Source: a virus
Length of the DNA stretch: 29,302 nt
Strand: one strand, 5' to 3'
Virus genome (UHGV): UHGV-0110803
Numbering within the stretch: the first letter of the stretch is position 1; each line of letters starts with the position of its first letter. The notes under the pieces were generated by a model. The model had not been told where the DNA came from, did not search any database, and saw nothing but the letters and a program-made list of their open reading frames with translations. The position numbers and the translations under genes were made by a program. This document shows, piece after piece, positions 9,304-28,048 of this stretch.

Positions 9304-9639
9304 TTACACGCCCAGTTCTTTACGCTTATCTGCGATCTTCTCGCGGAGCGTTTCAGCTTTGGCGTTATGGTGTGGCTTCTCGTTAAAGAGCAATTCGTAC
9401 TCTTCACGGAGCTTATCCAGTTCACCATCATCTGACACATCGTTGATGATTTTGGTGCTGGTTGCTGCCATTGACACCTTTCCTGCAACTTTTGCTTTTG
9501 CCTGTCTGGCTGCATCGTTAACAGGTTCCAGTGCGCTACCAGGCTCACCTTCGTATTCGATTTCTGCCCCCTCCGGCCACAGTGTGTTATGGATATGAGA
9601 GAGGCGCAGAACGCGGTATCTTGGTTTCTCACCTGACAT
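9304..9639 (-). CDS. Hypothetical head-module protein (111 aa from ATG)
   Basis: Track ORF trimmed to the ATG preceded by AAGGTGA; followed by an intrinsic terminator. Confidence 0.4.
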   Translation of the reverse strand: MSGEKPRYRVLRLSHIHNTLWPEGAEIEYEGEPGSALEPVNDAARQAKAKVAGKVSMAATSTKIINDVSDDGELDKLREEYELLFNEKPHHNAKAETLREKIADKRKELGV

Positions 9640-14099: not shown

Positions 14100-14136
14100 T
14101 TGACATTTAATGCGCGAATTATTACCTTTGAGGTAA
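14100..14136 (+). promoter_or_regulatory. Putative promoter region for the tRNA/moron cassette: TTGACA, AATTAT, then palindrome TTACCTTTGAGGTAA (14122-14136)
   Basis: TTGACA at 14100-14105; the decamer AATTATTACC is shared with the pL-like promoter; the -35 to -10 spacing is suboptimal (11 bp). Confidence 0.4.
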
Positions 14137-14458
14137 CCAAAGAGTTCATTCCGGTTACTAACATGACTGGCTTGTCGTTAAATTGAACAGGTGGAGTGAG
14201 CTTTTATTTTGAGCAGTACGGCGTATGGCACATGCGCCGATAGCGGTCTGGATACGTTTAAGGGGCACCCTCCCTTGCTCGGGCAAACGAACCAGGTAGC
14301 CGGAATGTGCAAGTCGAGCGGTTTTATTCCGCGCACGGGGATTCACCATCCCGGCGATTCGGTGTGACGCCTCGGAAGAGACGAGGGTACAACGATGAGA
14401 GCATTTATGGAGCCGCGACAAAGTGTGGCGCCTTAACAGGCTAAGTGCTCTCAGCGTT

Positions 14459-14535
14459 GTGGCATTAGCTCAGTTGGACAGAGCAACCGCCTTCTAAGCG
14501 GTTGGTCGCAGGTTCGAATCCTGCATGCCACGCCA
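14459..14535 (+). tRNA. tRNA-Arg (anticodon UCU), CCA encoded
   Basis: Cloverleaf folded by hand: acceptor GTGGCAT/ATGCCAC, D-stem GCTC/GAGC, anticodon stem ACCGC/GCGGT with loop CTTCTAA, T-arm GCAGG-TTCGAAT-CCTGC, discriminator G, CCA. Confidence 0.85.
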
Positions 14536-14578: not shown

Positions 14579-14620
14579 GGCGGTGATGGTTTCCCTTGAA
14601 GGACTATCACCGCCCTTTTT
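14579..14620 (+). terminator. Hairpin plus T-tract 3' of the tRNA (GGCGGTGAT ... ATCACCGCC CTTTTT)
   Basis: 9-bp perfect stem followed by a T-run; functional on the plus strand only. Confidence 0.45.
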
Positions 14621-14698: not shown

Positions 14699-14723
14699 GC
14701 CCGGTTCGTCCGGGCATTTTTTT
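14699..14723 (+). terminator. Intrinsic terminator-like hairpin GCCCGG-TTCGT-CCGGGC followed by ATTTTTTT, immediately upstream of the RBS of the 139-aa ORF
   Basis: GC stem plus 7-T run; RBS AAGGTGA follows directly. Confidence 0.5.
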
Positions 14724-15158: not shown

Positions 15159-15170
15159 GTGACATGTCAC
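15159..15170. repeat. Perfect 12-bp palindrome GTGACATGTCAC, copy A
   Basis: Identical 12-mer recurs at 17610-17621 with similar flanks (AACACC upstream). Confidence 0.8.
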
Positions 15171-15244: not shown

Positions 15245-16720
15245 TTAAGCATATGGATCGTAATCTGTGATGGCCTTGCCTTGCTGGTTCTGCTGCCCGG
15301 GAATTCGCAGACGCTTCGACACAGGGAACGCAAACGTCAGCAGTAGCGCATCGCCTTTACCAGGAGAACGCCCAAGCCGCTCCTTGATATCTTCCTTCGG
15401 TTCGATAACGATTTTACCGTCCACTCGAACTTTGTACTCTGCCGCCGACAGGTCGTCCGCTGTTTCCTGGTCATCAAGCATGCCGCCCAGCCTCAGCCAC
15501 GTCTTGCATGAGTTGAACATCTCCCCGCGCTTATTGAGCATCTGCGGGTCAGTAGACGCGCCACCGAACGGAACAAGTTGCCATGTACGACCCCAGCCGT
15601 CACCGATTGACTTCAGACCAGTTCCGTAACCGAAGTCGATGAACACCGCGTCAGCCTGATACTGGTCTTCAAAGTCAGCGATACGCTTTGCCATAATCAG
15701 ATCGTCAGTGGTCTTGTTGCCGGTCCACAGCACCTTACTGTGCAGCCCCTGCCGCAGGTATATCACCGCATCATCAACGCCTGAGTATGCCGGGTCAACG
15801 CCGATTATCACCGGAGCATGTGCAACCTGCGCAGCGGTGACCACCCGTTTCATTGCCTCGTCAGTAAGTCCGGTAGGGATAAACTGCAATTCAGATGCAT
15901 CCGGGAATATGCCGCGCACACGGATTTTAACGAAGTCGCTGTCTTCCCCGTAGTCATCAACCCATTTCTGCAACTGCTGTTTGTTAGTGCCTTCCACCGT
16001 CCGGCTGTCAATCTGCGCAGTTTTCCAGCGGTGTTTATATTTGCGGAAACATTCGCGGAAACGTCCGGTATTACGCGTCGGGTTTCCGAACGCCACCCAG
16101 ATAATCTCAGTGTCTTCGTCCGTTAGCGCACCCTCGGCAACTTCCCACACCAGATCCGCAATGTTCGACGCTTCATCGAATACCACGATGATGCGTTTGC
16201 GCTCGTTGTGTAGTCCGGCGAATGCCTCAGTGTTGTGCTCAGACCAGGGGATTGCGTCAGCTCGCCACCGCTTGTCGTGCCCAGGATCATTGCTGTACAT
16301 CGCGGTAGCGGTACAGGTAAACCAGTCTTTCGTGATAGCAAGGTTCGACCACTTGATAATTTCCGGCCAAGTCTTCGTTCGTAGCTGGTTGTCGGTGTTG
16401 GCGGTCACCACGACCTTACAATCCTCGCAAGTGGACATGCCCCAGTTGATCAGCATTGAGATGAATGCGGATTTACCAATACCGTGACCAGAAGCGCGTG
16501 CCAGCATAAGCGGCTGATAGCGCGTCTCTGGATTCTGCAGGTGATCACGTATCTCTCGGAACGCATCGGCCTGCCACTGACGTGGACCGGTGGCATGTGC
16601 CAGTTCAGTCCCCTCTTCCCCCCACGGGAACGCATAGAGGGCATAACCAAGCGGATCGTGAGTGAACCCTGCAATATCCTCGATCAACTGCTCTTCAGGA
16701 GATAACGCTGTATCTGTCAC
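15245..16720 (-). CDS. terL: Terminase large subunit (491 aa)
   Basis: Walker A-like SGHGIGKS, ATPase then nuclease-domain layout, 4-nt overlap with the small-subunit gene. Confidence 0.85.
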   Translation of the reverse strand: MTDTALSPEEQLIEDIAGFTHDPLGYALYAFPWGEEGTELAHATGPRQWQADAFREIRDHLQNPETRYQPLMLARASGHGIGKSAFISMLINWGMSTCEDCKVVVTANTDNQLRTKTWPEIIKWSNLAITKDWFTCTATAMYSNDPGHDKRWRADAIPWSEHNTEAFAGLHNERKRIIVVFDEASNIADLVWEVAEGALTDEDTEIIWVAFGNPTRNTGRFRECFRKYKHRWKTAQIDSRTVEGTNKQQLQKWVDDYGEDSDFVKIRVRGIFPDASELQFIPTGLTDEAMKRVVTAAQVAHAPVIIGVDPAYSGVDDAVIYLRQGLHSKVLWTGNKTTDDLIMAKRIADFEDQYQADAVFIDFGYGTGLKSIGDGWGRTWQLVPFGGASTDPQMLNKRGEMFNSCKTWLRLGGMLDDQETADDLSAAEYKVRVDGKIVIEPKEDIKERLGRSPGKGDALLLTFAFPVSKRLRIPGQQNQQGKAITDYDPYA

Positions 16721-17313
16721 TGATTACCATCCTGACGTTCTTTGAGTCGCTTCCTGGCTGCTGCTATGCGATCAGCAATTGTCACATTCACATTAACATC
16801 CAGACGTTCTTTGAACGCGTTGACATCAACATGCTTACCAATCAGCTCAAGGTTCTTCACCTTGTCAGGCCATTTAATTTTTTTGAGGATTGTCTCTATC
16901 GAATCCTCGTTCATGTTCATGATGGTCGATGACAGATCAAAGCCACTAAGCGTAGTGCGCCAGATTTTCGGCCACTCACGGATTGGTTTAAGGCTCCCAT
17001 CGTCGTTGAGGATGTCGATCACGTCCATCTGGTCGATCTCCACCAGGCGCATGAGAACGTAATCAGCACTGACGCGCATTCGTTTGTTGCGCTCCTCCAT
17101 CAACTCGGCAATCCGTTTTTGAATGCGTTCATCGCGCATCATGACACTGGCTTTAACTGCCGCTGTATTTGGGGAGAATCCTGCGTTAATCGCTGCCTGA
17201 GTCTGGTTTTCAGGCGTTTTGATGTATGACTGGCAATAAGCCTCCTGCATTGCTGTTAGTGGCTTAAATTGCGTTGATTTGCGTTTATAGGTTTTAGGTT
17301 CAGCAGGCATCAT
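16717..17313 (-). CDS. terS: Terminase small subunit (about 198 aa from tandem ATG ATG; track ORF starts at an upstream TTG)
   Basis: Motif LTAMQEAYCQSYIK ... QTQAAINAGFS typical of small terminase HTH region; AAGGTGG RBS before the ATG pair. Confidence 0.8.
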   Translation of the reverse strand: MMPAEPKTYKRKSTQFKPLTAMQEAYCQSYIKTPENQTQAAINAGFSPNTAAVKASVMMRDERIQKRIAELMEERNKRMRVSADYVLMRLVEIDQMDVIDILNDDGSLKPIREWPKIWRTTLSGFDLSSTIMNMNEDSIETILKKIKWPDKVKNLELIGKHVDVNAFKERLDVNVNVTIADRIAAARKRLKERQDGNQ

Positions 17314-17330
17314 AACCACCTTGGTAATAG

Positions 17331-17353
17331 TTACCGTTGTGGTAATAGTACCA
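17331..17353 (-). promoter_or_regulatory. Palindrome TTACCGTTGTGGTAA fused to an extended -10 (TGG TACTAT on the minus strand) upstream of terS
   Basis: Perfect half-sites; the -10 hexamer shares its last base with the palindrome, the same geometry as three other promoters in the window. Confidence 0.5.
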
Positions 17354-17354
17354 T

Positions 17355-17382
17355 GCAAAATAAAGCCGCCATAGTTGGCGGC
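17355..17382 (-). terminator. Intrinsic terminator after the 70-aa gene (GCCGCC-AACTAT-GGCGGC then TTTATTTTG on the minus strand)
   Basis: 6-bp GC stem plus U-tract, located 5 nt after the stop codon. Confidence 0.55.
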
Positions 17383-17387
17383 AGTAT

Positions 17388-17600
17388 TCAAAGTCCATCA
17401 AATTCATCGTAAAAACTCTCGTCAAGATACCCTTCCCATTTACCGCGAATGAAAATTACATCCTCGCCGCAAGGGTGCTGACTGTCGATAACTATATCCC
17501 TCCTGGCGCAACCATACTTATGCATGAGAAATTTAACCTCTTTCGGAAAATTTGCTGAGTTATCTCTCATATCTTCAAGGTCGTAGCGTATTTTTGGCAT
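17388..17600 (-). CDS. Hypothetical small protein (70 aa from ATG)
   Basis: GAAGGTG RBS; the GTGACATGTCAC palindrome lies immediately upstream. Confidence 0.4.
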   Translation of the reverse strand: MPKIRYDLEDMRDNSANFPKEVKFLMHKYGCARRDIVIDSQHPCGEDVIFIRGKWEGYLDESFYDEFDGL

Positions 17601-17609
17601 AACACCTTC

Positions 17610-17621
17610 GTGACATGTCAC
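17610..17621. repeat. Perfect 12-bp palindrome GTGACATGTCAC, copy B
   Basis: Sits exactly at the junction between the 113-aa gene stop and the RBS of the 70-aa gene. Confidence 0.8.
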
Positions 17622-17959
17622 ACTATTAATTTCGTTTCATGCCAGCCTTTAGTCACCCAGCATTGCGAGTCACCATTACACGGGCATGAATTCACAGGAA
17701 CTCTCTCGCCGCACTTACCGCAACGTTTTCTGCTGATCGATTTTATACGCCCGCGCACGCGTGCATCATCCTGGCGGATCAGTAACGCTATATACTCACC
17801 AAATTCGTAAGGCGCACGCCCGGGGCGACGTGTGGCACAGTTACGCTCCAGCATTTCAATTTCCTGAGCATCAAGCACAATCTCCAGCTTACGCACACCA
17901 GATGCAGCTTGTCTGGCTCTCTGAGCGGCTTTGCGCTCTGCTGCTGATTTAGCCATCAA
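17618..17959 (-). CDS. Hypothetical protein with basic N-terminus and Cys-rich C-terminus (113 aa)
   Basis: C-terminal CGKCG ... CPCNG ... C cluster suggests a zinc-ribbon; no family assigned. Confidence 0.45.
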   Translation of the reverse strand: MMAKSAAERKAAQRARQAASGVRKLEIVLDAQEIEMLERNCATRRPGRAPYEFGEYIALLIRQDDARVRGRIKSISRKRCGKCGERVPVNSCPCNGDSQCWVTKGWHETKLIV

Positions 17960-20807: not shown

Positions 20808-21152
20808 TCAGAACTCTTCGATGTTCCAGCCACCACCTGCTTTCTTTGGTTTAACCGTTACCCCGATGATTCGGAACGGATACTGATCTGCGGCGACTTT
20901 GGTTTTCACCCTGGCGTCGTCGGTCCAGAAACCTTTCACTTCGTGCAGTTCCATCTCGCCGGTGGCGAGCATCACAGCAAAATCGGGCGTATAGAACGTG
21001 TTGTCAGCTAACCGCAGCTTGATACCCTCAAATCGATACCAGACGATTTCTCCTGCACGTTTACGCAGCTCAAGGTGCTGGCAATACGCAGATTCTGTTT
21101 TGTTCATCTGGCCTGTTTTGAGTCGACCAAGAGCCTGTATCTGTTTTCTCAT
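20808..21152 (-). CDS. DUF1064-like small PD-(D/E)xK-type protein (114 aa)
   Basis: Pattern YTPDFAV ... ELHEVKG; its RBS GAGGT lies inside the palindrome at 21156-21170. Confidence 0.5.
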   Translation of the reverse strand: MRKQIQALGRLKTGQMNKTESAYCQHLELRKRAGEIVWYRFEGIKLRLADNTFYTPDFAVMLATGEMELHEVKGFWTDDARVKTKVAADQYPFRIIGVTVKPKKAGGGWNIEEF

Positions 21153-21155
21153 GAT

Positions 21156-21232
21156 TTACCTCTTAGGTAATTAAAAACCACATAAGACACGAAATCAATA
21201 GAGTTTAGAATATTTTGTTACCTGATAGGTAA
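21156..21232 (-). promoter_or_regulatory. Minus-strand promoter with two perfect palindromes: TTACCTGATAGGTAA (21218-21232), -35 TTGATT, 17-bp spacer, -10 TTTAAT fused to TTACCTCTTAGGTAA (21156-21170)
   Basis: Same geometry as the pL-like promoter: site, 19 bp, -35, 17 bp, -10 sharing one base with the second site; 62 bp centre to centre. Confidence 0.55.
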
Positions 21233-21244
21233 TCATTGAGGCGT

Positions 21245-21264
21245 AAAAAAATGCGCTATCGCGC
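21245..21264 (-). terminator. Weak intrinsic terminator after the P-like gene (GCGC-GATA-GCGC then TTTTTTT on the minus strand)
   Basis: Short GC stem plus 7-U tract directly after the stop codon. Confidence 0.35.
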
Positions 21265-21269
21265 TGGTA

Positions 21270-22070
21270 TTACTTGATAAATCCTGCCGCCTTTCCCCGC
21301 CTGTATTCCTCCATCAGCCACTGCGCCGGTGTTATTCCCCCAAGGGTGGCGGCGTTAGGCATGCACCCGAAACTTCGCCCTGGTGGATGGTAAACGTCTC
21401 TCCCTGTGTCCGGAGGTGTACTCATGGGCTCTCGCTTTGCCTGTATGCTGATCACCGGATCGGGTATCTGCTGTCCGGAAGCTACCTTTTTCGCCCAATC
21501 ATCGAGCAGCCTGCGCGCGTGTTTCTCAACCTCAATCTCGCTAAGCTGGCGCTGATACATTGCACGGCGGGTATCACATACGACCCAGTACATAACCGGA
21601 TGTCGCCACGGGAATCTTTCGGGACCACCAGGATATAAACTTTTTTCCTTGCTGTACCGGTGAAACTCCGCCATCACATCGTCAATGGTGACGCCAAGAA
21701 CCATCTTGCTGTCTTTACACCACTTGATGAATTGCCCTGGCGACGGCCAGAACGGAGACTCACTGGCGCGGGCGTGGCGCATACCAGCAGAAACCTGTTC
21801 ACGGGTTCGGATCCCCCCTTCGGCAAACGCAGCAATCCACTGCTGTTTTGCAGCAACTTCCTGCTCTGGCGTCTTCAGGTTGGTTACCACTGCCGCCGGA
21901 AACAGTTGTTTCAGCTGTTTGAAAAGGGCATCAACAAGCCTCTCTGCTGACATGTTCACCACGTTGTCATTGTTGGTGTACTGATGCTCATAACCTGACA
22001 TGCGAGAAAGGGCTTCTCCGTCACGGTTTTGTATCGCGGTAAAAACGTTGTTCACAAGAAATCCTCCCAT
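21270..22070 (-). CDS. Replication protein P-like (helicase loader), 266 aa
   Basis: Segment QQWIAAFAEGGIRTREQVSAGMRHARASESPFWPSPGQFIKWCKD closely parallels lambda P (recalled, not searched). Confidence 0.75.
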   Translation of the reverse strand: MGGFLVNNVFTAIQNRDGEALSRMSGYEHQYTNNDNVVNMSAERLVDALFKQLKQLFPAAVVTNLKTPEQEVAAKQQWIAAFAEGGIRTREQVSAGMRHARASESPFWPSPGQFIKWCKDSKMVLGVTIDDVMAEFHRYSKEKSLYPGGPERFPWRHPVMYWVVCDTRRAMYQRQLSEIEVEKHARRLLDDWAKKVASGQQIPDPVISIQAKREPMSTPPDTGRDVYHPPGRSFGCMPNAATLGGITPAQWLMEEYRRGKAAGFIK

Positions 22071-22867
22071 GCTTCAGGGCTGTTCCAGTGCGGAACGTTG
22101 TTATCAGGTAATGTTGATTGCTTCTGTCTGCTAATCTGCAGCCTCCTTGCCAGCTTCTGCTCCCACTGTGCCTGATGGTATGCCTTACCCTCAGCCATCC
22201 AGTAAATTCTGAACTCTGCAAGTTCCTGTGCCGTTGGCAGACTGTCCAGGTAGATCCCCTGCAATGAGCTTTTCCGAAGAAAGTCATCTGATGGTTGCCA
22301 TTGTTCATGCATGACAAATTTGCCTAATTGCCCTGGCCCACCAGGAGGAACAAAGTTATTCATCACGGCGTTGTTTGCGCCGGGGTCATGAGACACAGAA
22401 TCCCCGTTTTTTGTCCTGCTCTCCCTCTCTTGGTTAAATGACTGGTTATATGACTGGTTCTGGATCCCGTTTTTGGGATCATTCAACATCCCGTTTTTGG
22501 GATCATTCAACATCCCGTTTTTGGGTATATTCCCGTTTTCGGTAAAATTACCGTTTTCGGGTTCATTACCCCCTTCCCGGTTGCCTTTAATGTTCCCGTT
22601 TTTGGTTATATTAAGAGAGAAAACCCGCACTCTTTTTGTCGCTCCCTTTCTCTCTCCGGTATCTGAAATAAGCCCCATTTTCATGAGCGATATAAGCCCG
22701 GCCTGCACGGTTTTTTTATTCAGGCAAGTGTCTTTAACGAGGCGTTCTATGCTGGGGTAGCAGAGGTTATATTCATCGGCTCTGTCAGCCATCGAGAGCA
22801 GTATGAGCTTTAATGATGAGCTACCTGGATCTGTCTCCCAGGCCCAATCTGTTGCATGTCTGCTCAT
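22052..22867 (-). CDS. Replication initiator, O-like (N-terminal winged-HTH, internal iteron-encoded repeats), 271 aa
   Basis: N-terminal HTH-type segment, internal peptide repeats encoded by the DNA iterons, 19-nt overlap with the P-like gene. Confidence 0.7.
   Translation of the reverse strand: MSRHATDWAWETDPGSSSLKLILLSMADRADEYNLCYPSIERLVKDTCLNKKTVQAGLISLMKMGLISDTGERKGATKRVRVFSLNITKNGNIKGNREGGNEPENGNFTENGNIPKNGMLNDPKNGMLNDPKNGIQNQSYNQSFNQERESRTKNGDSVSHDPGANNAVMNNFVPPGGPGQLGKFVMHEQWQPSDDFLRKSSLQGIYLDSLPTAQELAEFRIYWMAEGKAYHQAQWEQKLARRLQISRQKQSTLPDNNVPHWNSPEAWEDFL
22464..22612. repeat. Iteron array (putative replication origin) inside the O-like gene
   Basis: ATCCCGTTTTTGGGATCATTCAAC twice in perfect tandem followed by four degenerate CCCGTTTT(T/C)GG units; flanked by AGAGAGAAA/TTTCTCTCT inverted repeats. 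Confidence 0.65.
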
Positions 22868-23083: not shown

Positions 23084-23163
23084 GGTAAGCCCTGTTATTA
23101 GTATTGGGATTACGGTTATTTTGTGCTGACACAAAAAAAAGATCAACCATATTTGGTTTTTTA

Positions 23164-23178
23164 TTACCTTTGAGGTAC
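23164..23178. promoter_or_regulatory. Operator-like palindrome TTACCTTTGAGGTAC (one mismatch) just downstream of the tR1-like terminator
   Basis: 14 of 15 bp identical to the site at 14122-14136. Confidence 0.45.
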
Positions 23179-23184
23179 GAATAG

Positions 23185-23212
23185 ATATGAAAAGACCGCC
23201 GGATGGCGGTCT
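23185..23212 (-). terminator. tR1-like intrinsic terminator after the Cro-like gene (AGACCGCC-ATCC-GGCGGTCT then TTTTC on the minus strand)
   Basis: 8-bp GC stem plus U-tract about 20 nt after the stop codon. Confidence 0.55.
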
Positions 23213-23233: not shown

Positions 23234-23464
23234 TCATGAGTAGAAGAAGTATGCCAGTTCTGCTTTTGAGCGCAGCCATTGTCTTGATTTACAGGCTTTA
23301 AAAAGCCCATCCATCAATACATTACCTGGCATTTTGCGCTTACCTGTTAAGTGAGTCTGGATATAGTGACTCGTCGTTCCGGCTTCCTGTGCGAAGGCTT
23401 CACGCTCATCCGGAGTAAGTGCAAGCCAGTGCTTTTTGAAATCGAAATGTCCGTTATCGCTCAT
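23234..23464 (-). CDS. Cro-like HTH regulator (76 aa)
   Basis: HTH-like segment AFAQEAGTTSHYIQTHLTGKRK; divergent from the repressor gene across an operator cluster. Confidence 0.55.
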   Translation of the reverse strand: MSDNGHFDFKKHWLALTPDEREAFAQEAGTTSHYIQTHLTGKRKMPGNVLMDGLFKACKSRQWLRSKAELAYFFYS

Positions 23465-23500
23465 AGCTATTGCCTGATATTTATTTCAGATAATAAATAT

Positions 23501-23563
23501 TCACCCATAAGGTAACAAAAATCAAGGATAGTTACCCATGAGGTGCATTTACCTGTTGGGTAA
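23501..23563. promoter_or_regulatory. Operator cluster of three TTACC-N5-GGTAA-type palindromes between the divergent regulator genes
   Basis: TCACCCATAAGGTAA (23501-23515), TTACCCATGAGGTGC (23532-23546), TTACCTGTTGGGTAA (23549-23563). Confidence 0.6.
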
Positions 23564-23618: not shown

Positions 23619-24203
23619 ATGAAAAGTATCCAGGACGTCCGCAGGCAAAATCTCAACGACTTGATCGACCGTGAATTCAATGGTGTTCAGACGCGGATGG
23701 CAGAAAAACTTGGAACTCAGGCAAATCTGGTAAACCGCTGGGCTCTTGGCAAGAAGGTTATCGGCGACCAGGTTGCGCGAAAAATTGAAGCTGCCGCCAA
23801 TAAACCACGTAACTGGCTTGATATCGATCGCTCGCTTTCTCAGGAAGGTTTTCAGCCTGTCGGCCCAAGCGACATTGGTCAGCTGGCGGCTCACAACCTG
23901 GAACGCTGGATGAGCGAAAGCCGCGACCTTTCAACTCAGGGAAAACTTCACCGCGCATCCGGCGTCGCCCAGGTGACAATCAGCCGCCTGTTAAACAATG
24001 AGGTCAGCGTTTCCATTTCCACCCTGGAGAATGTTGCATCCGCATTCGGGCGTCACGGCTATGAATTACTGATTCACCCGCACGACCCTGCGACCATCAA
24101 CTATGACCGCTCGCGCTACGCATTGTTACCCGAAACCGAGAAAGCAAAGATCGAAAGTTACATTGAATTTGTCATCAACCAGAACGAAAAAAACAAACAA
24201 TAA
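23619..24203 (+). CDS. Prophage repressor candidate with two HTH motifs and no peptidase domain (194 aa)
   Basis: Two XRE-type HTH segments (QTRMAEKLGTQANLVNRW and ASGVAQVTISRLLNN); no Ala-Gly/Ser-Lys autocleavage signature seen. Confidence 0.6.
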   Translation: MKSIQDVRRQNLNDLIDREFNGVQTRMAEKLGTQANLVNRWALGKKVIGDQVARKIEAAANKPRNWLDIDRSLSQEGFQPVGPSDIGQLAAHNLERWMSESRDLSTQGKLHRASGVAQVTISRLLNNEVSVSISTLENVASAFGRHGYELLIHPHDPATINYDRSRYALLPETEKAKIESYIEFVINQNEKNKQ

Positions 24204-24223: not shown

Positions 24224-24250
24224 AAGCCGCCTTCTGGCGGCTTTTTTATT
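24224..24250 (+). terminator. Intrinsic terminator after the repressor gene (AAGCCGCC-TTCT-GGCGGCTT then TTTTATT)
   Basis: 8-bp stem plus T-tract. Confidence 0.65.
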
Positions 24251-24260
24251 GCCTATACTG

Positions 24261-24337
24261 TTACCTAATAGGTAATTTTCTTAACTCATATCTATTGACA
24301 TCAAACCAAATACGCATAATTATTACCTCAACGGTAA
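24261..24337 (+). promoter_or_regulatory. pL-like promoter: palindrome TTACCTAATAGGTAA (24261-24275), -35 TTGACA (24295-24300), 17-bp spacer, -10 AATTAT fused to TTACCTCAACGGTAA (24323-24337)
   Basis: Consensus -35; two perfect palindromes 62 bp apart centre to centre. Confidence 0.6.
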
Positions 24338-24356: not shown

Positions 24357-24509
24357 ATGCAGTGGAAAATCATCAACGGTTGGTACTGCGTTACTGCATG
24401 CGGATTCATGAGTTGGAAGTTTCGCACCTTACAGGAAGGCATTAAGTGGGCTTTCGTCAGCAAAGAAGCTCGCGATGTGGCCAACGATAACGAGATATGG
24501 GAGGGCTGA
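24357..24509 (+). CDS. Small Trp-rich protein (50 aa), first gene of the pL-like operon; not in the ORF track
   Basis: GAGGT RBS 8 nt before the ATG; frame translated by hand to TGA at 24507-24509. Confidence 0.35.
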   Translation: MQWKIINGWYCVTACGFMSWKFRTLQEGIKWAFVSKEARDVANDNEIWEG

Positions 24510-24511
24510 TA

Positions 24512-24811
24512 ATGAACGTTAATCAGCAGAAAAATCTTCAAAAAATCATGCTGGCATTCGACAAGGACTACCGCCTGTCAGAACAGCTATATGACCGACA
24601 AGTTGAACTGATTGAGAGCATCCGACTTCATCAACTGTCCTCAACTTTCGACGTTGTAACAGGCAAAGGCGTTCGTCAGGAAGTGCTGGAGGCTGCTAAA
24701 GACAGCCCTGAGTTCGAAGAACTGATGGATGCCTACCGGCGCGAGGCAATGGCAATTATAGCGCGCTGGGATCTGGCGGATCAGCTTGATGGGCAGAGGG
24801 ACGCGGCATGA
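24512..24811 (+). CDS. Hypothetical protein (99 aa from the internal ATG)
   Basis: GGAGGG RBS 7 nt before the ATG at 24512; 4-nt overlap with the exonuclease gene. Confidence 0.5.
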   Translation: MNVNQQKNLQKIMLAFDKDYRLSEQLYDRQVELIESIRLHQLSSTFDVVTGKGVRQEVLEAAKDSPEFEELMDAYRREAMAIIARWDLADQLDGQRDAA

Positions 24812-25629
24812 AACCGGGAATTTATTTCGACATCAGCAACGAAGACTACCACGCAGGTGACGGCGTGAGTAAGTCGCAACTGGACATGGTTGCCAAGAAT
24901 CCGGCGCTTCTTAAATGGGTTCAGGCAGCACCAGAAGACGAAGAGAAAAAGTCTGCACTGGATATGGGAACCGCATTGCACTGCCTGCTTCTGGAACCTG
25001 GAGAATTCGACAAACGCTTCATCGTTTCACCGAAATTCGATCGTCGGACAAAACAAGGTAAAGCTGACGAAGAAGCATTTCTTCGTGATGTGGCGGATAT
25101 GGGTATTACGGTACTTGATGTCGAGCAGTGGCGAAAACTGGAGCTGATGCGTGATAGCGCAATGGCTCATCCGGCGGCACGCTGGATGTTGGAAGCACCT
25201 GGTTACTGCGAAGCATCAATGTACTGGAACGATGAAGAGACGGGTGAGTTGTGCCGAATTCGTCCAGACAAATGGCTGAACGAGCACAACGTGATCGTCG
25301 ACGTGAAAAAGGTTGCAGATATGGACCGTTTTGCACGCCACATCGAGGAATTCCGCTACCACGTGCAGGACGCAATGTACCGCGAAGGCGCAATGAGGGT
25401 TACTGGTCAGCCGCATGGTTTTTTCTTTCTTGCCGTGAGCGAAAGCATTGATTGTGGTCGGTATCCGGTACGCGTGTTCGAGCTGGATGCGCCAGATGTC
25501 GATGCCGGGCACGCTCTGTTCCGCCGGGATCTGAATACCTATCACGAATGCCGCATCAACGATGAATGGGGCGGAGTGGAAATTATTAAACGCCCTGACT
25601 GGGCACGTAAACAGGATATGTACGTATGA
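24808..25629 (+). CDS. PD-(D/E)XK-type recombination exonuclease (exonuclease VIII/RecE C-terminal-like), 273 aa
   Basis: N-terminus MKPGIYFDISNEDYHAGDGVSKSQL typical of this family (from memory); coupled to the annealing-protein gene. Confidence 0.7.
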   Translation: MKPGIYFDISNEDYHAGDGVSKSQLDMVAKNPALLKWVQAAPEDEEKKSALDMGTALHCLLLEPGEFDKRFIVSPKFDRRTKQGKADEEAFLRDVADMGITVLDVEQWRKLELMRDSAMAHPAARWMLEAPGYCEASMYWNDEETGELCRIRPDKWLNEHNVIVDVKKVADMDRFARHIEEFRYHVQDAMYREGAMRVTGQPHGFFFLAVSESIDCGRYPVRVFELDAPDVDAGHALFRRDLNTYHECRINDEWGGVEIIKRPDWARKQDMYV

Positions 25630-26507
25630 GCAATGATATCGCAATCACATCACAACCAGGCGCAACTGTAGGCACTGCTGCGGCAATCTTCAGCCCCGAG
25701 GGCATGAATCAACTGGTGCGTTTCGCGGAGTTGATGTCACAAAGCAAAGCGACTGTACCGAAACATCTTGAAGGCAAACCTGCCGATTGCCTGGCGGTGA
25801 CCATGCAGGCGGCACAGTGGGGAATGAACCCTTTCGCCGTGGCGCAGAAAACGCATGTGGTAAACGGAACGTTAGGCTACGAAGCACAGTTGGTAAACGC
25901 GGTCGTATCCTCTTCCAGCCTGCTAGCGACACGCCTTAATTATCGCTGGAGCGGTGACTGGTCGAATGTTAACGGCAAAACAGATAAATCACCGAATCTG
26001 ACGGTAACTGTGTCAGCAGTTCTTAAAGGAGAAGTAGAACCACGTGAGCTTACCATCAGTATGGCGCAAGCCGGAGTGCGTAACTCTCCATTGTGGGAAC
26101 AGGATCCGCGCCAGCAACTTGCCTATCTTTGCACGAAACGATGGGCTCGCCTGCACGCTCCTGATGTACTTCTTGGTGTTTACACCCCTGACGAATTACA
26201 GGAAACGGCACCGCGCGTTGAGCGAGACATTACTCCGCAAACAACTACTGCTGCGGGAATGAACAGTCTGATCAACGCTAAACCAGTGAAAAAGCCTGAT
26301 GAGCAAACGCGTAAAGCGGATAGCCGTGATCCAGAAGAAATGCTGATGGCCTTTACCAGCGCAGCGATGAATTACAGCACTGTCTCCGAACTGGATAAGG
26401 CTTACAAATACATTGCACAAAAACTTTCAGATGATGACGAACTGCTGGCAAAAGCCACCGACGTTTACAGCGTTCGTCGGGAAGAATTAAACGAAACATC
26501 TATGTAA
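25626..26507 (+). CDS. Single-strand annealing protein, Bet/Red-beta-like (293 aa)
   Basis: Segments NPFAVAQ, PLWEQDPRQQL ... RWARLHA and ERDITP parallel lambda Bet (recalled, not searched). Confidence 0.75.
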   Translation: MSNDIAITSQPGATVGTAAAIFSPEGMNQLVRFAELMSQSKATVPKHLEGKPADCLAVTMQAAQWGMNPFAVAQKTHVVNGTLGYEAQLVNAVVSSSSLLATRLNYRWSGDWSNVNGKTDKSPNLTVTVSAVLKGEVEPRELTISMAQAGVRNSPLWEQDPRQQLAYLCTKRWARLHAPDVLLGVYTPDELQETAPRVERDITPQTTTAAGMNSLINAKPVKKPDEQTRKADSRDPEEMLMAFTSAAMNYSTVSELDKAYKYIAQKLSDDDELLAKATDVYSVRREELNETSM

Positions 26508-26556
26508 CCACCACCGCGGCGCCACGCGCGCCGCACTGCAACCAAGAGAGGTATTT

Positions 26557-26805
26557 ATGAAAGGTGCATTAGGTAAGAAGGAACTCCTGGCGGTGGTGCC
26601 ACTGTCATGGAGCACTATCGACCGTATGGAGCGCGCAGGTGAATTTCCTAAACGCTGGTATATCACTGACAAACGCTGCGCATGGAACCGTGACGAAGTT
26701 GAGCGTTGGCTTGATGAACGTCAGGCAGCAAGCCCGGCAGAGTTCCAGGGTAAAAAGCCTCCGGTTCAGCAACGTGTATATCGTCCTGTGAGCAACGCTG
26801 CATGA
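26557..26805 (+). CDS. AlpA/Xis-type excisionase or regulator (82 aa)
   Basis: Motif LLAVVPLSWSTIDRMERAGEFPK ... AWNRDEVERWL. Confidence 0.65.
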   Translation: MKGALGKKELLAVVPLSWSTIDRMERAGEFPKRWYITDKRCAWNRDEVERWLDERQAASPAEFQGKKPPVQQRVYRPVSNAA

Positions 26806-26914
26806 GTGTGCTTCTAAGGCACTGGAGCAAATGGTCAGGATGGTACTTATTCCTGGCCTCTGTTTCAGCATGGCTTTATCTGCTGGCATTAATTTTCAGA
26901 GAGGGTTGGATTAA

Positions 26915-27214
26915 GTGAGAAAGTTAAGCCGACTTGAAAAATATCACATGAACAAGGTTTCAATGCGCAGTCCGTCAAAGATTGTCGCCGTTACTCCTGC
27001 GGCGATAGAGATCGAAAAACGCGCGATTGAAAGAGAGAAAAAAGGGCAGTTCCGCATTGCCGCTCACCTTTGGCTTCAGTGTATGGATGTTGCTTCTGGT
27101 GATGTTGAGCGTGCAAGGATCGCGGTTCGCAGGGACCAATGTATCACAAAAGGTAACGGCCTTCGCCGTGGCGACTATAGCGGCATAGGATGTTGTGGGG
27201 TGGTTTATGACTAA
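26915..27214 (+). CDS. Small hypothetical protein, possibly ANR-like regulator (start uncertain: GTG at 26915 or ATG at 26963)
   Basis: Segment FRIAAHLWLQCMDVA ... ERARIAVRRDQC; assignment is tentative. Confidence 0.35.
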   Translation: MRKLSRLEKYHMNKVSMRSPSKIVAVTPAAIEIEKRAIEREKKGQFRIAAHLWLQCMDVASGDVERARIAVRRDQCITKGNGLRRGDYSGIGCCGVVYD

Positions 27215-27857
27215 GAAATACACACTAATCTATGCAGATCCACCCTGGGTATACCGGGACAAAGCCGCAGATGGTAATCGCGGTGCCGGTTTTAAATATC
27301 CGGTTATGAGTGTGCTGGATATCTGCCGCCTTCCTGTGTGGGATTTGGCCGATGAAAACTGTCTGTTGGCCATGTGGTGGGTGCCAACACAACCACTCGA
27401 AGCACTAAAAGTTGTTGAAGCCTGGGGATTCCGTCTGATGACCATGAAGGGCTTCACGTGGATAAAATGTGGTAGTCGACAACCAGATAAACTGGTTATG
27501 GGTATGGGACACATGACTCGCGCCAATAGTGAAGATTGCCTGTTTGCAGTAAAGGGAAAACTACCTACGCGCATTAATGCAGGGATCGTTCAGTCATTTA
27601 CCGCACCGCGGCTTGAGCACTCAAGAAAACCAGATATCGTTCGTGAAAAACTTGTGCAATTGTTAGGCGATGTTTCTCGCATTGAACTGTTCGCCCGCCA
27701 GACGTCTCATGGCTTCGATGTTTGGGGTAATCAGTGTGAAGACCCGGCAGTGCAACTACACCCCGGATACGCGTTGGATATTGGCGGATTAACAAATGCA
27801 TTCAGCAATTCTCCGCTGTCACCAACAGACAACCAGGGGCGGGAGCGTGCAGCATGA
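27207..27857 (+). CDS. MT-A70 family DNA N6-adenine methyltransferase (216 aa from the internal ATG)
   Basis: Catalytic DPPW motif in IYADPPWVY; 8-nt overlap with the upstream gene. Confidence 0.8.
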   Translation: MTKKYTLIYADPPWVYRDKAADGNRGAGFKYPVMSVLDICRLPVWDLADENCLLAMWWVPTQPLEALKVVEAWGFRLMTMKGFTWIKCGSRQPDKLVMGMGHMTRANSEDCLFAVKGKLPTRINAGIVQSFTAPRLEHSRKPDIVREKLVQLLGDVSRIELFARQTSHGFDVWGNQCEDPAVQLHPGYALDIGGLTNAFSNSPLSPTDNQGRERAA

Positions 27858-28048
27858 ACAGGGCATCACCAGCAGATTTAAGGAAATGCCTTGAAACTGC
27901 AAACATGCTTGCACACAGCGGGATCAGGTTTGTTCCAATTCCCGCTGTCACTGATGCTGAATTTGCAACACTGTCAGCAATATTCGCAGATAAAATTGAA
28001 TCACTGGCAGCAGAAGCCGAGATGGAAGAAAATCAGCAGAATAATTAA
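27854..28048 (+). CDS. Hypothetical small acidic protein (64 aa)
   Basis: 4-nt overlap with the methyltransferase gene; no recognisable domain. Confidence 0.4.
   Translation: MNRASPADLRKCLETANMLAHSGIRFVPIPAVTDAEFATLSAIFADKIESLAAEAEMEENQQNN

Follow-up and report, generated by a model that had tools for sequence, protein, structure and literature searches.

The operon junctions of this phage are probably ordinary Uetakevirus operon boundaries, where every unit begins at a predicted promoter overlapped by an operator of the phage repressor, Rep. The element conserved throughout the genus is the putative operator–promoter cassette and not the pairing of terminator and operator. Sites, hairpins, their geometry and conservation, and the homology of Rep are established here for the window, i.e. 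the whole 29,302 nt stretch of DNA analysed. Both components were already known: the epsilon15 record marks the operators, the phiV10 record the terminators, and structures of the repressor family have been solved. The duplicated 81-bp cassette with its fixed 62-bp spacing may not have been spelled out before.

Between 14 and 25 kb the window is 96–98% identical to Escherichia phages PAS61, phiv142-3, ZX5, TL-2011b and phiV10, and its gene order matches that of the Uetakevirus family. By these sequence comparisons it is a Uetakevirus, an epsilon15/phiV10-like temperate podophage of E. coli. Five genomes from four host genera were compared: the window, epsilon15, SPC32H, Enterobacter phage Tyrion and Klebsiella phage BUCT711. 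Four junctions are termed J1 (before terS), J2 (after the lambda-P-like gene), J3 (after the Cro-like gene) and J4 (after rep). The units and genes around them are as follows.

From terS (ATG 17316) leftwards, minus strand: late genes, the packaging/late operon
21152–17388: nin-like block (nin-like/middle operon)
ATG at 21152, minus strand: DUF1064 gene, directly after the J2 cassette
23083–21270: replication genes, including the lambda-P-like and DnaT-like genes
23234–23464, minus strand: Cro-like gene, 76 aa, heading the rightward operon; phrog_35 'transcriptional repressor' (E 3.5e-12)
23619–24203, plus strand: rep, encoding a 194-aa repressor with an HTH_3 domain, homolog of SPC32H Rep
24357–28048, plus strand: early-left operon (PL), with the integrase after it

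The DnaT-like gene also contains iterons at 22464–22613, which are probably an origin marker.

The palindrome TTACC-N5-GGTAA is present in seven exact copies, at 14122, 17331, 21156, 21218, 23549, 24261 and 24323, against 0.02 expected from shuffled sequences, and a palindrome scan found it to be the sole strongly enriched palindrome in the window. With up to two mismatches allowed, there are 27 matches against 7.7 expected. Degenerate copies at 17313, 23164 and 23501 (one mismatch each) and 23532 (two mismatches) complete a set of 11 sites, all of them confined to the starts of units and symmetric, the exact copies being perfect inverted repeats. Two pairs have a spacing of 62 bp (21156/21218 and 24261/24323) and one a spacing of 18 bp (17313/17331); a triplet (23501/23532/23549) lies in the divergent region between rep and the Cro-like gene. 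epsilon15, SPC32H, Tyrion and BUCT711 carry the palindrome at the corresponding junctions. A preliminary description of this DNA had named four of the 11 sites and did not mention the pairing. It gave all four as TTACC-N5-GGTAA, which is exact for 17331, 21218 and 24261; the site at 23164 departs by one mismatch (TTACCTTTGAGGTAC).

Most likely, the palindrome serves Rep as its operator. This reading is based on the copies in the immunity region, the annotation of epsilon15, the homology of Rep, and the effect of the ZX5 repressor. The immunity region is laid out as follows.

23490–23563, no strand assigned: divergent immunity region, with O1 at 23501–23515, O2 at 23532–23546 and O3 at 23549–23563

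The three copies occupy the region between the divergent rep and Cro-like genes and overlap a predicted lytic promoter, O1 being inside the spacer of the rightward promoter TTGTTA (23513–23518)-17-TATTAT (23490–23495) on the minus strand. The triplet, with its spacings of 17 bp and 30/31 bp, is conserved in epsilon15, SPC32H and Tyrion; in BUCT711 the 17-bp pair is kept and a third site is seen by eye only. The epsilon15 record labels the same palindrome 'protein_bind: repressor, lysogeny' at homologous junctions. The earlier use of the term operator is thus supported by this annotation and by the homology of Rep.

Rep aligns with SPC32H Rep (PDB 5D50) over residues 1–190 (E 4e-42). In later papers that cite it, SPC32H Rep is described as a tetramer in which DNA-binding domains pair across dimers to bind palindromic sites (PMC9638917), with a tetramerisation domain of the DNA-looping type (PMC9986798). 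Overexpression of the ZX5 repressor, which is identical to Rep, reduced endolysin and holin transcripts by ~99.97–99.99% (PMC9782041), a drop that fits direct control of the late units by Rep. The stretch NLVNRW in the N-terminal domain is invariant genus-wide among Reps that are otherwise 43–78% identical, and this invariance matches the unchanged operator half-site. Diverged Reps keep the same recognition stretch together with the same half-site; the 80 loci kept of 225 Rep relatives in IMG/VR all encode a 100% identical Rep. The C-terminal, Ant-binding half has diverged relative to SPC32H Rep. Induction of SPC32H reportedly proceeds via an antirepressor that removes Rep, and the Rep–Ant switch is said to have been described by Kim & Ryu in 2013 and by Kim et al. 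in 2016 (PDB 5D50/5D4Z).

Might the palindrome be bound mainly by another protein, e.g. the Cro-like 76-aa protein, with Rep recognizing something else? The helix-turn-helix stretch of that protein is as invariant genus-wide as the palindrome, and its AGTTSHYIQ.HLT is invariant in the five genomes. However, Cro and repressor use common operators in lambda-type switches, and binding by the Cro-like protein would therefore add to the main explanation. In addition, the epsilon15 depositors call the sites repressor sites, the window has no alternative repeated motif for Rep, and paired sites suit a two-headed tetramer of the kind described for SPC32H Rep (PMC9638917). A palindrome that serves chiefly a protein other than Rep is therefore very improbable.

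One and the same 81-bp cassette makes up J2 (at 21.2 kb) and J4 (at 24.3 kb): a distal operator is followed by 19 nt, (CTA)TTGAnn, 17 nt, and a −10 whose final T also begins the proximal operator.

21156–21232, minus strand: J2 cassette, with distal operator 21218–21232, −35 TTGATT 21193–21198, −10 TTTAAT 21170–21175 and proximal operator 21156–21170
24261–24337, plus strand: J4/PL cassette, with distal operator 24261–24275, −35 TTGACA 24295–24300, −10 AATTAT 24318–24323 and proximal operator 24323–24337

The predicted promoters, TTGACA-17-AATTAT at J4/PL and TTGATT-17-TTTAAT at J2, stand in the same register. The ten cassettes from the two junctions in five genomes align without gaps, and the operators are 62 bp apart in nine of them and 63 bp apart in one. 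At J2 the proximal operator also contains the Shine-Dalgarno sequence of the DUF1064 gene. Both junctions show what is expected of an operator-controlled sigma-70 promoter, i.e. a spacer within 16–18 nt, operators that overlap or flank it, and conservation.

The late junction, J1, is built differently, with an extended −10 followed by two tandem operators 18 bp apart, the second of which holds the terS ribosome-binding site.

17345–17353, minus strand: putative late promoter, extended −10 TGGTACTAT, its final T doubling as the first of the operator; predicted start near 17338
17331–17345, no strand assigned: late operator 1, exact, spanning the predicted start of the packaging/late operon; its epsilon15 counterpart at 12–27 is annotated 'protein_bind repressor'
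17313–17327, no strand assigned: late operator 2, one mismatch, 18 bp from operator 1; the spacer holds the terS Shine-Dalgarno sequence AAGGTGG

The motif TGnTA(C/T)TAT (TGnTAyTAT) abuts the late operator in the same register in all five genomes, and the tandem pair with its 18-bp spacing is kept in epsilon15, Tyrion and the window. No −35 was found for this late promoter, and it may need an activator.

J3 departs the most from the cassette.

23118–23178, minus strand: J3 region, with a weak operator at 23164–23178 (GTACC...GGTAA), the block CCAAATATGG, and a putative −35 TTGATC (23141–23146) and −10 CAAAAT (23118–23123)

The left half of the operator reads GTACC, ACACC or ATACC in the five genomes and is followed by a conserved 22-nt block. 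The hexamers TTGATC-16/17-CAAAAT are also conserved in the five genomes; they are modest matches and there is no proximal operator. They represent a putative promoter for the replication operon. The conserved block CCAWATAYGGTTGATCTTTTTT was considered as a DnaA-box or IHF site, and this was dropped on account of poor matches.

A further site lies outside the four junctions.

14122–14136 (region 14100–14136), plus strand: further operator, with TTGACA (14100–14105) 16 nt upstream and a −10, TACCTT, within the operator

The distance from TTGACA to operator is identical in the five genomes, and TTGACA-17-TACCTT fits all of them. A plus strand promoter with a −10 AATTAT at 14117 was rejected, as the spacer would be just 11 nt. 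The annotated repressor site at 2931–2947 of epsilon15 is the counterpart of this operator. The operator faces a structured leader of 330 nt before tRNA-Arg(UCU), and the operator-bearing TTGACA promoter is predicted to serve this leader.

In sum, a predicted sigma-70-type promoter is found in fixed register with the operators at three of the four junctions, with conservation in five genomes from four host genera. The preliminary description had suggested that the genome is cut into insulated transcription units, each restarted from a regulated promoter. This proposal is partly supported. The register-locked putative promoters favour it, and it is qualified by a weak hairpin at J2, by terminators that are less conserved than the cassettes, by a late promoter without a −35, and by the presence of the p55 gene upstream of J1.

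The terminators themselves are as follows.

17355–17382, minus strand: J1 terminator, stem-loop 17365–17382 (GCCGCC-AACTAT-GGCGGC) with U-tract 17355–17364; ends the nin-like/middle operon
21245–21264, minus strand: weak J2 terminator, GCGC-GATA-GCGC (21253–21264), then A and T7 (21245–21252); after the lambda-P-like gene
23185–23212, minus strand: J3 intrinsic terminator, stem-loop 23193–23212; after the Cro-like gene
24224–24250, plus strand: J4 intrinsic terminator of the rep transcript, stem-loop 24224–24243 and T-run

The J1, J3 and J4 hairpins are predicted intrinsic terminators, each with a GC-rich stem-loop and U-run at a gene 3′ end on the transcribed strand. The J1 hairpin has 7 bp (−16.3 kcal/mol, z −3.8, tail TTTATTTT), that at J3 has 8 bp (−15.0 kcal/mol, z −5.1, tail TTTCATAT), and that at J4 also has 8 bp (−21.1 kcal/mol, z −6.1, tail TTTTTTAT). 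The J2 hairpin is thermodynamically weak, with a 4-bp stem that is below the 5-bp minimum of the scanner and a z of −1.6. Intrinsic terminators had been proposed at all four junctions; the sequence pattern is clear at three of them and ambiguous at J2, where a 4-bp stem is followed by A and T7.

The terminators vary between relatives. The J1 hairpin is identical in at least 67 IMG/VR loci, is found also in epsilon15, SPC32H and Tyrion, is absent from BUCT711, and is annotated in the epsilon15 and phiV10 records. The J3 terminator is kept in Tyrion and at least 57 IMG/VR loci; in epsilon15, SPC32H and BUCT711 the hairpin lacks a U-run. The J4 terminator is present in Tyrion and in 80 of the 80 IMG/VR loci kept (of 225) with this Rep, and the junction alignment showed no clear counterpart in epsilon15, SPC32H or BUCT711. 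Thus each of these three terminators is missing or has no U-run in at least one relative. The weak J2 motif is unchanged across at least 59 distinct IMG/VR sequences and is kept in the five genomes. In the phiV10 record each of the four junctions, J2 included, bears a terminator annotation.

As first described, each of the four hairpins is followed by a palindrome along the direction of transcription; the positions are right, and the gap from stem end to operator is 19, 20, 14 and 17 nt at the four junctions. When four terminators were scattered randomly over the 1,890 non-coding nucleotides, every one of them had a site 8–25 nt downstream in 8e-5 of 100,000 trials; both elements are expected at operon boundaries, and this figure therefore measures organization and not a new kind of element.

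Another perfect palindrome, GTGACATGTCAC, occurs beside terminators at 15159 and 17610. It is present in 2–3 copies in the complete genome of each of four relatives, typically between the stop codon of the last gene of a unit and a hairpin, so that unit ends across the genus carry it beside terminator hairpins. Of 80 p55 loci, 77 have it overlapping the stop codon of the gene, with variable DNA immediately downstream. No mention of GTGACATGTCAC was found in the literature searched. A scan of viral contigs for the 14-mer TGTGACATGTCACG returned many unrelated contexts, as expected by chance, and only copies linked to p55 or to hairpins were used.

The 80 IMG/VR loci kept (of 225, identical Rep) show the arrangement at higher resolution. 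The set of sites is repeated from locus to locus, with differing gene content in between. Little or no variation is seen in the half-sites, hairpin stems, T-runs and promoter hexamers, and the 5-nt operator spacers and terminator–operator linkers are hypervariable, with 43–49 distinct versions. Invariant elements amid hypervariable linkers are the mark of selection on terminator and operator–promoter alike.

The position of an operator 14–20 nt behind every hairpin raises the question of whether its main role is to stop RNA polymerase that has leaked through the terminator in the lysogen, and not to control initiation, which would make it a palindromic counterpart of the L5 stoperator. Immediately after rep, the only gene that a lysogen must transcribe, comes J4; epsilon15, SPC32H and BUCT711 have no clear rep terminator, yet have a third operator downstream, by the Shine-Dalgarno sequence of the first PL gene; and the operators at 17313 and 21156 overlap ribosome-binding sites instead of promoters. 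The L5 stoperators, recognized by gp71, are ~30 asymmetric 13-mers that are orientation-dependent and act on elongation. The window resembles L5 in the many sites for a single repressor that lie outside the immunity region, at boundaries between gene clusters. It differs in that the sites are symmetric, number about 11, and are in fixed register with promoter hexamers; asymmetric, orientation-dependent sites within transcribed regions, as in L5, are not what is seen. The strict −35/−10 register and the 62-bp pairing around the promoter are predictions of initiation control, and a roadblock needs neither; nor are any sites spread through transcribed regions, all being at unit starts. A roadblock as the principal role is therefore unlikely, and the two activities can coexist.

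Progression through the lytic cycle might alternatively be driven by an unrecognized antiterminator or late activator, with junction promoters that are minor or activator-dependent and units that are not autonomous. Two genes invite this idea.

17618–17956, minus strand: gene for a p55/gp49-family 'transcriptional regulator' of 112 aa (phrog_536), second-to-last gene before J1
26915–27214: gene for a PerC-like protein, a PerC-family activator encoded in PL

In the p55 protein a Cys/His cluster is invariant and the N-terminus follows a beta-alpha-alpha pattern; its gene lies just upstream of J1, as Q does in lambda, and p55 is a candidate late regulator. The late promoter, an extended −10 without a −35, is also in keeping with the idea, and the weak J2 hairpin suggests that read-through is tolerated. 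On the other hand, promoters at J2 and J4 have consensus-like −35 hexamers, and the searches gave no antiterminator-family match. None was found among 26 ORFs, mostly of the early region, compared with Pfam, among 10 small or unassigned ORFs compared with PHROGs, or in NCBIfam. As a Q-like factor, p55 had no sequence match in PDB and none in Pfam or NCBIfam; its AlphaFold model is of low confidence (pLDDT 63.8), and Foldseek against PDB gave nothing below E = 3.9. The Rfam search of the window for antitermination RNA returned just one tRNA. Strings like boxA, sought together with nut and qut elements, occur only within coding sequence or on the wrong strand; one of these, the rrn-boxA-like TGCTCTTTAACGA at 9392 (minus strand), is in a structural gene, is kept only in Tyrion, and was judged to be chance or coding constraint. 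These results agree with the preliminary description, in which no N-like or Q-like antiterminator had been recognized, and a concealed cascade of this type appears improbable.

A more elaborate proposal is that J1 is a three-part device consisting of GTGACATGTCAC, the terminator, and the Rep-controlled late promoter, in which p55, with a putative ribbon-helix-helix-like N-terminus and a Cys-rich C-terminus, tunes termination or read-through at GTGACATGTCAC. This we regard as speculative and quite improbable. If true, p55 would represent a novel type of regulator linked to terminators, and the device would supply timing beyond the reach of a single repressor.

The preferred reading, in which operon boundaries carry promoters under Rep control, has its closest relative in epsilon15, the type Uetakevirus (NC_004775.2 / AY150271.2). 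There (A)TTACC-N5-GGTAA(T) is found at homologous places, the same terminator directly precedes the terS operator, and the 62-bp and 18-bp pairings are the same. Its record marks repressor sites ahead of terS, gp3 and the tail-fibre gene, at three places in PL, and ahead of the gene next after the replication module; of 11 exact copies in that genome, 7 carry such an annotation. epsilon15 differs from the window in three respects: its Rep is just 43% identical to that of the window, convincing terminators are missing behind rep and the Cro-like gene, and PL contains a third operator. SPC32H has a homologous repressor and the same palindrome at the same junctions; the ant locus is not part of the window. 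The epsilon15 genome was reportedly published by Kropinski et al. in 2007, and phiV10 by Perry in 2009.

Lambda immunity and timing depend on the OL/OR operators, the tL/tR terminators, and antitermination by N/nut and Q/qut. As in lambda, the repressor and Cro-like genes of the window diverge from a region with three operators, early operons run both leftward and rightward, terminators separate functional modules, and there are a lambda-P-like replication gene and nin-like genes. In contrast to lambda, the window carries operators also at the units for replication, the nin-like genes, packaging and the tRNA, each with a putative promoter of its own; searches of it gave neither an N or Q homolog nor a nut-like element, and Rep has no peptidase domain. 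Plasmid pLS20 Rco has an N-terminal HTH and a C-terminal tetramerisation domain that shares its fold with that of SPC32H Rep, and two operators 75 bp apart flank and overlap a promoter, with looping (PMC9986798); the spacing in the window is 62 bp. Rco differs in that it acts on direct-repeat arrays at a single promoter pair on a plasmid (PMC9986798), whereas the window has single palindromes at many promoters. The layout of the window is therefore of the epsilon15/SPC32H regulatory type, and neither of the lambda type, because operators are at many units, no N or Q was found, and induction would be by antirepressor, nor of the L5-stoperator type, because the sites are symmetric and locked to promoter hexamers.

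For this phage we infer Rep binding to these sites, promoter activity, looping and the efficiency of the terminators, and events would probably take the following course. At each junction the last gene of a unit would be followed by an intrinsic terminator, a short variable linker, and the operator–promoter cassette of the next unit. Rep, which is probably a tetramer like its SPC32H homolog, would place its two DNA-binding heads on operator pairs 17–18 bp or 62 bp apart, and on a 62-bp pair the −35/−10 region would be looped out. In the lysogen Rep would silence all lytic units together, i.e. PL, PR, replication, nin-like, packaging/late and the tRNA unit. The sole active transcript, that of rep, would be kept out of the early-left genes by the J4 terminator together with Rep bound immediately after it. 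On induction an antirepressor would strip Rep from the DNA, leaving every unit free to start at a promoter of its own.

The predicted Rep regulon would thus comprise at least six promoter regions within the window, and more genome-wide. The rigid 81-bp cassette with its 62-bp spacing fits a two-headed tetramer and makes looping directly testable. The predicted transcript starts and ends offer a simple test of whether lytic expression can be ordered without antitermination in a temperate phage. The cassettes are located exactly where gene content differs between relatives, and therefore they may also be recombination joints in the mosaic evolution of these phages.

Junctions equivalent to window positions 21218-21232 and 24261-24275 were compared among 80 IMG/VR loci (L004-L083), all of which carry an identical Rep, the phage repressor. 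Hypervariable sequence, with 43-49 distinct versions, makes up the 5-nt spacers of the operators and the 7-10 nt that link the T-run to the operator. The half-sites, the hairpins and the hexamers of the promoters stay fixed. Cassettes at the junctions keep their place while the intervening genes differ, and therefore may be recombination joints.

A second perfect palindrome of 12 bp, GTGACATGTCAC, is usually found after the stop codon that closes a unit's final gene and before a GC hairpin. Its copies are as follows:
15159-15170 and 17610-17621, window
2142, 19517 and 39612, epsilon15 (L003)
2145, 19634 and 38629, SPC32H (L084)
2702 and 20377, Tyrion (L085)
431, 18526 and 26462, BUCT711 (L086)
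The palindrome overlaps the stop codon of p55, a gene of the 'transcriptional regulator' family, in 77 of 80 p55-encoding loci, and the DNA immediately downstream is variable. Between the palindrome and the terminator of J1, the late junction before terS, the window has an inserted small ORF (phrog_1541). A text search of one paper library for the palindrome string returned no match.

The longest terS ORF (16717-17391) begins with TTG at 17391 and would take in the terminator and both late operators; a corresponding ORF of 675 nt is annotated in the PAS61 record. The true start is likely the ATG at 17316, which is preceded by AAGGTGG. The resulting product of 199 aa agrees in length with epsilon15 terS (198 aa).

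At J3, after the Cro-like gene, the operator and its flank (23145-23178, + strand), CCATATTTGGTTTTTTAT running into TACC..., resemble an inverted proximal half of the J2 cassette, with an 86% match to 21157-21184. On the + strand, TTTTAT resembles a -10 and holds the usual register, and an A-tract stands where the -35 is expected. Speculatively, these motifs could form an activator-dependent promoter, in a position comparable to that of lambda PRE, that would send antisense transcription across the Cro-like gene in the direction of rep.

A TTGACA promoter with an operator, oriented away from the late genes, is present in the 14100-14535 region, and its TTGACA-to-operator distance is identical in all five genomes (the window and four relatives). 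The 330-nt non-coding stretch downstream folds better than shuffled sequences (z -3.4) and has no match in Rfam. It is followed by:
14459-14535, tRNA-Arg(UCU)
14579-14614, + strand, terminator
14699-14715, + strand, terminator

The string TGCTCTTTAACGA (9380-9392, - strand) agrees with rrn boxA at 12 of 13 positions and lies on the late-transcribed strand. It probably reflects chance or coding constraint, since it is within a structural gene and retained only in Tyrion.

Tandem 24-nt iterons, ATCCCGTTTTTGGGATCATTCAAC, occur at 22464-22613 as two perfect copies plus degenerate ones, within the DnaT/HTH_36 replication gene (22052-22867, - strand). This block is probably the replication origin; the lambda origin likewise lies inside the initiator gene.

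Outside the window, all four relatives share a conserved one-mismatch operator, TTACC-N5-GGTAT, some 50 bp upstream of their integrase gene:
26882, epsilon15
26960, SPC32H
28568, Tyrion
12620, BUCT711
This conservation suggests that Rep also acts on int expression.
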